Virus record (IMG/VR): IMGVR_UViG_3300013741_000057
Source of the DNA: a virus
Lineage: Duplodnaviria > Heunggongvirae > Uroviricota > Caudoviricetes
Reading direction: 5' to 3' (one strand)
Length of the DNA: 6,001 nt
The notes under the pieces were generated by a model. It was given only the letters and a program-made list of their open reading frames with translations, made no database searches and had not been told where the DNA came from. Shown here one piece after another: positions 1-1,115 of the stretch; positions within the stretch are counted from its first letter, which is position 1, and every line of letters begins with the position of its first letter. The position numbers were made by a program, and so were the translations under genes.

Positions 1-710
1 GTTGTGGTGACCGGTGCTGATCTCCGGCTTGCGGTCATTTCAGACTCTCACGGGCGTTTAATTGCCCCGCCGAACAGCTCTTTTCCGCAATAGCTGCAAT
101 GTCTTTCGCGCATCAGCCTGCGCATTCACCACAACGCTGAGAGCACTTAGCCAGTTACGGCACCACACTTTGTCGCGGTTCCATAAATGCCCTCATCGTT
201 GCACCCTGGTCTCTTCCCAGGCGTCAAACCGAATCGCCACGCTGGTTAGGCGTCTTATCAGCATCCTCATTGACTTGCACATTCCGGCTACCTGGTTTGT
301 TTGCCCGAGCAAGGAGTGGATTGTCCCCTTTAACGTCCCCAGACCGCTAACGACGCATGTGCCATACGCCGTGTTACAATAAAATGTTCGGTATTAGTTA
401 CCAAAGAGACGATTACTCTTATGGTTGAATGTAATACCCCTGTTGAATATTTTCTTGCGTACTATTTGTTTTTCCTATATAACGAATTGGTTGTTTTATT
501 TACATAATNNNNNNNNNNCTATGTGGTGAACTGGTTTTCGTTTACGCAAGAAAAAGTTTTCTTAAGTAAGTTTACATTGTTTTGTCTTGCTATTTTTCAA
601 AATTCAAGAACAATGAATTGTCGCTATCGGTAATTATTCTTTATGAAATTTTATAAATAACTCCCTGCTTTTGAGTTTTGTACGCAGTGTTTTTAGTTGT
701 CGAGGACATA

Positions 711-920
711 ATGGATAATCAAAATACTCCTGTTTTTGATGTATGTGGTTGGTACTGTGTGCCAGTTAAAGATCATAATTCAGTTATAGTTCAACTGTCC
801 TGCAAACAACCACCATTTGAATCTGATAAAATTATCGAAAGTCCAATATATTCTTTTCCCATAAAAGAAATACCAAATCTCATAAATACATTACAAAACA
901 TTTATGAAGAAAATAATTGA
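711..920 (+). CDS. Hypothetical small protein (69 aa) in an AT-rich moron-like insert
   Basis: ATG at 711 is preceded by GAGG (702-705) at 5 nt spacing; stop TGA at 918-920. The listed ORF 678-920 is the same frame with an upstream alternative start. The gene sits in a strongly AT-rich block (383-1115) unlike the flanking DNA and is followed about 23 nt later by a strong hairpin plus T-run. No family recognised. Confidence 0.4.
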   Translation: MDNQNTPVFDVCGWYCVPVKDHNSVIVQLSCKQPPFESDKIIESPIYSFPIKEIPNLINTLQNIYEENN

Positions 921-942
921 TTATAAATCCAGTTCAAAAGTG

Positions 943-970
943 AAGCGTCCATTTGGGCGCTTTTTTATTT
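943..970 (+). terminator. Rho-independent terminator downstream of the 711-920 gene
   Basis: Stem AAGCGTCC (943-950), loop ATTT, stem GGGCGCTT (955-962) with one G-U wobble, followed by TTTTTTATTT. Confidence 0.55.
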
Positions 971-1043
971 ACGAATCATTCCGGTCTTCGTATGCCCCGG
1001 ACGGCTACTTCGTGGGCGTCCTGCCTGTTCGATATCTTATATA

Positions 1044-1069
1044 GGTACATTATGTATCTCAATGGTACA
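1044..1069. promoter_or_regulatory. Distal operator-like repeats: two GGTACAT copies 20 bp apart, with an 11-bp palindrome TACATTATGTA (1046-1056)
   Basis: GGTACA at 1044-1049 and 1064-1069. The same hexamer and its reverse complement TGTACC recur in the cI-cro control region (1807-1825, 1869-1874). This site lies between two convergent terminators, downstream of the repressor gene. Confidence 0.35.
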
Positions 1070-1080
1070 TTGTCAAGTAT

Positions 1081-1103
1081 AAAAAAACCTGCCGAAGCAG
1101 GTT
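1081..1103 (-). terminator. Rho-independent terminator of the repressor gene (minus strand)
   Basis: Stem ACCTGC (1087-1092), loop CGAA, stem GCAGGT (1097-1102). On the minus strand the hairpin is followed by a run of 7 T (plus-strand A run 1081-1087). It lies about 12 nt past the repressor stop at 1116-1118. Confidence 0.6.
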
Positions 1104-1115
1104 CATAGACATTGA

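Follow-up and report, generated by a model that had tools for sequence, protein, structure and literature searches.

The window analysed here, a stretch of 6,001 nucleotides (nt) from the IMG/VR record IMGVR_UViG_3300013741_000057 (Caudoviricetes), is 97.5-99% identical to Escherichia coli chromosomes and represents the immunity and early region of a lambdoid E. coli prophage of SfV/e14 type. Next to its LexA-like repressor gene cI/ymfK (1116-1790, minus strand; Peptidase_S24, Pfam 93.1 bits, RefSeq name ymfK) lies an AT-rich cassette (380-970) in what would be the leader of the early-left (pL) transcript, and this cassette carries a 69-codon gene (711-920, plus strand) that is convergent with the repressor gene. 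Its product, the RefSeq hypothetical protein WP_021559686.1 of 69 amino acids (aa), is acidic and soluble; as a very divergent homologue that is shortened at its C terminus, it belongs to the wider BssS (YceP) family. We consider it highly probable that the cassette is a moron carrying a BssS-family homologue, and set out below the evidence for this reading and what it may imply for the role of the gene.

The cassette is set apart by its base composition. The guanine-plus-cytosine (GC) content of 200-nt windows is 0.275-0.325 throughout 401-900, whereas windows to the left give 0.52-0.55 and those to the right about 0.45-0.59, and the whole insert (380-970) has a GC of 0.299, compared to 0.549 at positions 1-379 and 0.497 at 1116-6001; in a simple calculation, the GC over these 591 nt lies about 9-10 binomial standard deviations under the mean of the 6,001-nt window. 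Third codon positions of the open reading frame (ORF) give a GC of 0.16 (0.42-0.51 in neighbouring phage genes). Mapping by homology placed the left junction at 379/380, the end of a leader common to many lambdoid phages, and the right junction at 970/971, as homology to SfV resumes at 971; homology to SfIV and PhiR49_1 likewise resumes there, or at 943 when the terminator described below is included. These junctions were identical in 12 of 12 full-length prophage copies (the prophage of strain Sx181-0-1, here L001, and 11 IMG/VR contigs, one cut at its left end), and a plasmid-borne remnant (L009) retains the left one. The cassette measures 591 base pairs (bp) in the window and 549 bp in the other prophage copies that we checked. 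Positions 971-1115 have a GC of 0.44 and are phage backbone outside the insert, comprising the early-left promoter/operator and the cI terminator. A previous reading of the window from its sequence alone (hereafter the sequence-only reading) had described a sharp drop in base composition between 383 and 1115 and proposed a moron-like insert beside the repressor gene; the drop is borne out by the composition values above, and the left edge of the interval holds (379/380), but its right edge has to be drawn back to 970.

The proposal of an insert also fits with the slot being empty or differently filled in related phages. The slot is empty in mEp460 and Stx2a_1447, where about 150 bp separate the shared left segment from the 3' end of another repressor gene; SfV has orf33 here on the opposite strand, PhiR49_1 and SfIV have a rightward gene for a 242-aa protein that ends at the same terminator hairpin as the window gene, and Salmonella phage F1055 has a rightward cassette of two genes. 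These comparisons make the slot beside cI a hotspot for cargo, and 380-970 a discrete, compositionally foreign and in all likelihood horizontally acquired moron cassette.

The 69-codon gene is equipped with recognizable expression signals. A Shine-Dalgarno sequence, GAGGA (702-706, plus strand), stands 4 nt 5' of the ATG, and an intrinsic terminator (942-970, plus strand; hairpin 942-963) with a 9-bp stem, a 4-nt loop and a U-tract was located by scanning and folding. The terminator reaches -13.3 kcal/mol with its U-tract on the plus strand (z = -3.0) and -7.7 kcal/mol without a U-tract on the minus strand, and is effective on the plus strand only. These signals confirm the earlier description of a gene at 711-920 with a ribosome-binding site and its own terminator, convergent to cI. 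The only Rfam result for positions 1-2200 (E <= 1) was a Phe-leader match across the terminator, which we rejected as chance.

Comparison with a second, non-phage copy of the gene shows how much of the cassette moves as a unit. This copy has about 78% DNA identity and is found in an island on plasmids of incompatibility group F (IncF) and on chromosomes, downstream of genes for a two-partner-secretion adhesin, an HMW1C-like glycosyltransferase, a DUF2919 protein and a LuxR/GerE-type regulator, with genes for an EAL-domain protein and an acyl-homoserine lactone (AHL) lactonase nearby. BLAST homology to the island copy covers 664-924 together with the terminator (923-969), and GGAGGG occupies the place of the Shine-Dalgarno sequence. 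Strict local alignment of the upstream regions did not rise above shuffles, and we used a fixed-register test instead: in the register set by the ORF, ungapped identity is 0.52 for 560-663 and about 0.7 for 664-710, compared to 0.26 +/- 0.04 (maximum 0.41) in other registers, and it stays at 0.5-0.6 back to about position 571 before falling to background. The region 571-710 (plus strand) is thus common to both copies and probably holds a promoter region and a 5' untranslated region (UTR) of about 50 nt. Because identity extends upstream to about 571 and the terminator is shared, the mobile unit appears to be approximately 571-969, consisting of promoter region, 5'UTR, gene and terminator. Positions 380-570, upstream of this unit, are AT-rich DNA specific to the prophage, with an identity to the island copy of 0.13-0.33 that equals background.

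The same comparison provides evidence of selection on the protein. Window and island copies differ by 23 synonymous and 18 non-synonymous changes (S = 41.7, N = 165.3), corresponding to a dS (synonymous divergence) of about 1.0, a dN (non-synonymous divergence) of 0.12 and a dN/dS of 0.12, and the two reading frames, each of 69 codons, align without an indel or stop codon. Every prophage copy that we examined keeps the ORF intact, with 99-100% identity of the protein across the 11 IMG/VR contigs. On these codon-level comparisons 711-920 is shown to be a real gene under purifying selection. The sequence-only reading had named as evidence against itself an ORF that is not conserved while the AT-rich DNA is; the opposite was found, as the ORF is the best-conserved part of the cassette and 380-570 is absent from the island copy. 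No further ORF is kept across copies, whether at 421-507, at 904-1044 or on the minus strand within the insert, and the 28-aa ORF at 421-507 is frameshifted in the plasmid copy (L009). In terms of distribution, the full block is present in 30 of 5,426 complete E. coli genomes (about 0.6%), in the 11 IMG/VR prophage contigs and, as a phage remnant, on IncF plasmids of Salmonella and E. coli, while about 9 additional genomes have the island version.

To the sequence-only reading the 69-aa product had no recognisable family, a statement that holds for direct searches but not for profile and structure comparison, both of which make the protein a distant BssS homologue. The protein has no tblastn match in 50,697 deposited phage genomes, BLASTP against K-12 BssS returned nothing, and a word-indexed search with the family alignment did not reach BssS; a sequence search of the PDB produced only START-domain matches at E 0.26-0.43, which were rejected as chance. 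An exhaustive HMMER search of 1.84 billion representative proteins recovered six matches. Three of these are E. coli variants, two (P0007, 2,257 aa, and P0008, 409 aa) were discarded because the matches are repetitive or of low complexity, and the last, P0006, is an 85-aa protein aligned over residues 4-65 with an E-value of 9e-5 for the whole library and 35% identity (33-36%, depending on the alignment). P0006 is a BssS protein in its own right: it scores 31.6 bits against PF13991 (gathering cutoff 27 bits), matches K-12 BssS (sequence taken from the annotated genome) by BLASTP at 2e-8, and matches the phage protein family phrog_10846 at 2e-9, a family that K-12 BssS itself matches at 5e-5. 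A related-locus search with P0006 found nothing.

Profile comparison supported the same assignment independently of P0006. Using hhalign, the window family aligned to a diverse BssS profile with 88.8% probability and an E-value of 2.5e-6 over 62 of 69 residues; this profile adds the Pfam-positive members of F1055, Pseudomonas phage PseuP_224 and Synechococcus phage Ssp-JY37, and excludes both the window family and P0006. Adding P0006 to the BssS profile changed these values to 96.3% and 2e-9. An alignment of eight sequences has an invariant GW, with strands and helix in register. Four residues of the 69-aa protein, C12, C16, H22 and C31 (C-x3-C-x5-H-x8-C; window 744-803), are invariant in the subfamily formed by the window and island proteins and absent from other BssS-family members, and they may form a metal site or disulfide specific to this subfamily. 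As the 69-aa protein itself has no Pfam match that reaches the PF13991 cutoff of 27 bits, we file it as a distant homologue of PF13991 and not as a threshold member.

Predicted structures were consistent with this relationship. AlphaFold2 gave models of similar confidence for the 69-aa protein and for canonical BssS (predicted local distance difference test scores of 69.5 and 66.0), each with four strands and then a long helix at the C terminus, and with an order of elements that matches the alignment register. In comparisons to 48,164 PDB chains, the top 5 for the BssS model (8chw_B, 5a4n_A, 3n8b_B, 3nm7_A and 5fgo_A) were all within the top 6 for the 69-aa protein, and the BFVD entry named 'BssS protein family' matched the latter with a template modelling (TM) score of 0.60 and a Foldseek E-value that is not significant. 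From these models we predict a beta4-alpha fold of PUR/PC4 type, normally dimeric, for the BssS family. Single beta4-alpha PC4-like units form helix-swapped homodimers that bind single-stranded nucleic acids (PMC7549692), but there is no sequence similarity to these PC4-like/PUR type II proteins, the models are of moderate confidence, and the 69-aa protein is acidic (isoelectric point, pI, 4.4) where PC4/PUR surfaces bind single-stranded nucleic acids. The predicted fold is a structural lead and not proof of nucleic-acid binding, and we found no literature link of BssS to PC4/PUR. An acidic pI (4.4-5.6) and the lack of a membrane segment are common to all BssS-family proteins examined; for the 69-aa protein the grand average of hydropathy is -0.34 and the maximum Kyte-Doolittle 19-mer value is 0.62.

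The genomic context of other phage-borne relatives is similar to that in the window, as every phage-borne BssS-family gene that we found lies near a lysogeny switch. The window gene is 196 nt from cI, and the gene for P0006 (contig L013; 581 nt from the gene for a helix-turn-helix, HTH, repressor) and gp37 of F1055 (467 nt from cI) converge on the repressor gene in the same manner, the backbone of F1055 having the same SfV-like layout. The PseuP_224 gene (WAK44842) lies 481 nt upstream of cI and is co-oriented with it, and the Ssp-JY37 gene (XAI96612) is 694 nt from a cro-like HTH gene, on opposite strands. These genes (phrog_10846) share both family and cI/cro neighbourhood with the window gene; they differ in that phage-borne BssS proteins have 81-85 aa and score 32-75 Pfam bits (62-75 bits against PF13991 for those of F1055, PseuP_224 and Ssp-JY37), while the window protein is shorter and approaches phrog_10846 only at E 0.31. 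Phage BssS-like proteins are already present in databases, as phrog_10846 and the BFVD entry named BssS, with no function attached. What is new here is a divergent small protein of the BssS family as moron cargo beside cI, in other respects a fairly ordinary accessory gene. We found no mention of WP_021559686, WP_124353614 or phrog_10846 in the literature, nor any link of BssS to morons.

The phage backbone between the cassette and cI suggests how the gene might be expressed relative to the switch. A promoter scan identified a pL-like early-left promoter on the minus strand (1049-1076) that matches 11 of 12 sigma-70 positions, TTGACA (1076-1071) and CATAAT (1054-1049) being separated by 16 nt, and a 19-bp palindrome resembling the oL operator (ATGTATC-N5-GGTACAT, 1052-1070) fills its spacer and overlaps the -10 element. 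Palindromes of the same type occur at 1807-1825 and 1857-1875 in the cI-cro operator region (1807-1875), annotated in SfV as 'putative operator region', and GGTACA occurs 9 times in the window compared to an expectation of 2.0, a count reached in 0 of 200 shuffles. The cI terminator (1085-1104, minus strand) folds at -11.6 kcal/mol (z = -4.0) and is an annotated terminator in SfV, and the pL/operator block is conserved in SfV, SfIV and PhiR49_1. We read 1049-1076 as a probable repressor-controlled early-left promoter/operator just past the cI terminator, from which transcripts would run leftward, antisense through the cassette and then through the conserved leader to yfdP; RefSeq annotation of L001 places the early-left genes yfdP/Q/R just outside the left end of the window. 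On the other side of the repressor gene, the divergent cro/ymfT (1881-2081) is followed rightward by ymfL, a Rha-family gene, replication genes, a PerC-like gene, a LexA-N-terminal-like gene and rusA.

With this arrangement, the explanation that we favour, and which we consider moderately probable as a whole, is that the cassette is a moron providing a BssS-like regulator for lysogenic conversion. In the lysogen, cI would repress pL and leave the gene free to be transcribed from a weak or regulated promoter of its own at about 618-657, and the terminator at 942-970 would keep this transcript out of pL/oL and cI; upon induction, pL transcription would cross the gene antisense and silence it. 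The product would be a small, soluble, cytoplasmic and probably dimeric regulator or protein-binding factor that alters host physiology in the manner of BssS, with lysogenic conversion as the outcome and not membrane-based exclusion. BssS has been tied to biofilm formation, indole and autoinducer-2 (AI-2) signalling, stress and colonisation resistance, in each case by phenotype only (PMC3646849), and the island paralogue, located among adhesin, LuxR, EAL and AHL-lactonase genes, fits a biofilm and signalling theme. A specific physiological role in biofilm, signalling or stress is an analogy to BssS that we put forward tentatively, as something less likely than the general explanation.

Several observations weigh against the assignment to BssS and the role that we attach to it. 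Neither Pfam (E <= 1) nor NCBIfam contains a match to the 69-aa protein, the single PHROGs match given above is below threshold for this protein, and hhalign against a shallow, enterobacterial-only BssS profile gave a non-significant E-value of 0.11. Identity is 13-14% to canonical BssS and only 13-19% to the Pfam-positive members, and the window subfamily lacks the last ~15 residues of the family (...SGD...H), including the conserved C-terminal His. We found no BssS-family member with a solved structure, and a protein of such acidic charge is less likely to bind nucleic acids in the way typical of PC4/PUR domains. The promoter of the gene is also only a candidate: in agreement with the sequence-only reading, for which the promoter could not be pinned down, the scan found no sigma-70 match of at least 9/12 on the plus strand upstream of the gene. 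The best candidate (618-647, plus strand), read from the sequence, reaches 8/12, with TTGTCG (618-623) and TATGAA (642-647) 18 nt apart and an alternative -10 element, TATAAA, at 652-657; in the island copy TTGCCA and TTTAAT, 17 nt apart and aligned to 621-649, give a 10/12 promoter match. DNA of 30% GC is of the kind silenced by H-NS in E. coli, and the gene may for this reason be silent in laboratory conditions. Lastly, we found no described biochemical mechanism for BssS in the literature, so that likeness to BssS predicts a class of phenotype and not a mechanism.

In spite of its low identity to BssS, the 69-aa protein resembles it in size (both about 70-85 aa), acidity and solubility, in the GW pair, in the four strands and C-terminal helix, and in the top PDB neighbours, and it differs in location, being carried on a prophage cassette with a homologue on plasmid and island DNA and not at the dinI-bssS locus. 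Compared to the lambda morons bor and lom (Juhala/Hendrix definition), the cassette is likewise a discrete insert of deviant composition between genes that are adjacent in relatives, with its own terminator, and the orientation and position of its gene seem compatible with expression from a repressed prophage; unlike bor and lom, it lies antisense in the pL leader and not in the late region, and its promoter remains a candidate.

Other explanations of the gene have to be weighed against lysogenic conversion by a BssS-like regulator. The sequence-only reading proposed a superinfection-exclusion or anti-phage gene expressed in the lysogen, by analogy with lambda rexAB and P22 sieB, and genes of this kind are indeed known from the position beside the repressor; in addition, the slot receives varied cargo, and small uncharacterised proteins can prove to be defence factors. 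Location beside the repressor of a lambdoid prophage is, however, all that the window gene shares with rexAB and sieB: it is a single small gene without sequence or profile similarity to them, its product is soluble and acidic with no transmembrane segment, unlike RexB and SieB, and it is convergent with cI, whereas rexAB and sieB are co-transcribed with cI or internally promoted in the pL operon. PADLOC had no match (E <= 10) for the 69-aa protein, for P0006, for the F1055 homologue or for the alternative cargos of the slot, and the homologues are chromosomal BssS regulators, with a paralogue in an adhesin and signalling island and not in a defence island. The same prophage does carry an anti-phage sirtuin gene, dsr1, which adjoins the integrase gene in strain Sx181-0-1 (L001 393-4220), and this places the recognisable defence cargo at the other end of the prophage and not beside cI. 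The exclusion idea thus found no support, and we regard a defence role as quite unlikely. The gene could alternatively be an inert passenger, an AT-rich remnant silenced by H-NS with an ORF that has no current function in the prophage. The very low GC, the unconvincing promoter, the rarity of the cassette among complete E. coli genomes and the tolerance of the upstream DNA for indels and a 42-bp duplication all speak for this reading; against it stand a dN/dS of 0.12 at a dS close to 1.0 over a frame free of indels and stops, an ORF intact in all prophage copies and a ribosome-binding site, 5'UTR and terminator co-conserved with the island copy, and we consider it very improbable.

The recurrent association with lysogeny switches raises the possibility that the BssS-like protein acts on the switch itself, modulating the lysis-lysogeny decision or induction through repressor cleavage, repressor stability or binding to a switch component, and not on host biofilm. 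BssS-family genes lie 0.2-0.7 kb from cI/cro in five temperate phages (of Escherichia, Salmonella, Pseudomonas, a deposited 'Synechococcus' phage and an unassigned contig), the PseuP_224 gene is directly upstream of cI, the window repressor is a LexA-like S24 autopeptidase, and K-12 bssS is directly downstream of the SOS gene dinI. Adjacency alone is nevertheless weak evidence given that morons are commonly found next to cI; moreover, the L013 repressor has no S24 domain, no phage switch is found near the island paralogue, and we found no literature link of BssS to SOS or LexA. We judge action on the switch to be unlikely. A broader and highly speculative extension, to which we give little credence, is that BssS-family proteins, chromosomal BssS among them, form small dimers of acidic charge and PUR/PC4 type whose ancestral home is the phage lysogeny-switch region, where they tune induction or host stress signalling by binding a signal that is either a protein or a single-stranded nucleic acid; the window protein would then be a shortened Cys/His variant and host BssS a domesticated copy. 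If this were true, ancestry in a switch module would give the biofilm regulator BssS a concrete molecular function.

Under the interpretation as a moron with a BssS-like regulator, the results assign a family to a hypothetical prophage gene missed by standard annotation pipelines and show that BssS-like small regulators are recurrent cargo beside temperate-phage repressors. Such recurrence suggests that phages may modulate the biofilm, signalling or stress behaviour of their hosts in lysogens, a part of which are associated with Shiga toxin-producing E. coli; for BssS, the shared PUR/PC4-type fold prediction offers a structural hypothesis that can be tested. In practical terms the consequence is small, as this is one rare accessory gene with a role that is only inferred.

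Some further features of the window and of related loci are of note. The window alone contains an imperfect 42-bp tandem duplication (509-550, including a mask of Ns at 509-518), which is absent from L001, L009 and 11 of 11 IMG/VR copies; its first copy resembles the chromosomal allele of L001 and its second the plasmid allele of L009, a pattern that may have arisen by unequal recombination between alleles or as an artefact of assembly. Tandem Repeats Finder reported no repeat at 509-550, because the N mask breaks the duplication. In the early-right region, 5317-5643 encodes a protein of about 108 aa that RefSeq labels a LexA-family transcriptional regulator (L001 13010-13336); by its length it looks like the N-terminal DNA-binding part of LexA without the S24 peptidase domain, and it could interfere with the host SOS regulon. 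In F1055, the first gene downstream of the pL-like region (L014 4328-4513, minus strand), situated between the BssS-like cassette and cI, encodes a 61-aa protein with a ClpX-type C4 zinc finger (PF06689, 40 bits).

Two observations concern the plasmid and island copies. The Salmonella IncFIB/IncFIC plasmid pUWI-PP98.1 (L009 6613-7626) and about 15 similar plasmids carry a prophage fragment that corresponds to window 1-1058 at 92% identity; on these conjugative plasmids the fragment ends inside the oL operator/pL promoter, and excisionase and IS256 transposase genes are found nearby. In E. coli TUM1881 (L010 3889-5799, chromosome and IncF plasmid), the gene following the two-partner-secretion adhesin is named 'cobalt ABC transporter permease' in RefSeq, but its product corresponds to a protein of contig L006 with matches to the Pfam domains HMW1C_N/HMw1_D2 and is probably a misnamed glycosyltransferase of HMW1C/EtpC type.

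The leader to the left of the cassette has a broad distribution of its own. Positions 1-379 match more than 100 phage records at up to ~99% identity, with homology stopping at 379; long matches (65-100% of the length, 83-99% identity) are found in Escherichia/Stx phages, and many others consist of short pieces only. The leader extends about 180 nt past the left end of the window (L001 7526-8080), contains no credible ORF on either strand, is left unannotated by the NCBI Prokaryotic Genome Annotation Pipeline (PGAP), and in phages without the insert forms ~700 nt between pL/cI and yfdP. It has no Rfam match, and pieces of 1-385 fold with z near 0; it may act as a leader with a regulatory role, or it may be a joint between mosaic segments that is prone to recombination. 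An element of ~45 nt at about 100-150 (RNA fold z about 0) recurs at 88-95% identity in many otherwise unrelated phages, mostly in unannotated DNA, including the large virulent Klebsiella phages Madison, Magnus and KP6 as well as HK633 and Cronobacter phage ES2. Positions 208-379 are 78-88% identical to unannotated DNA of the P1-like phages P1, D6 and vB_EcoM-673R5, and positions 1-148 match the P1-like phage JL22 under a gene annotated as plp, which makes the leader a mosaic shared by lambdoid and P1-like phages.

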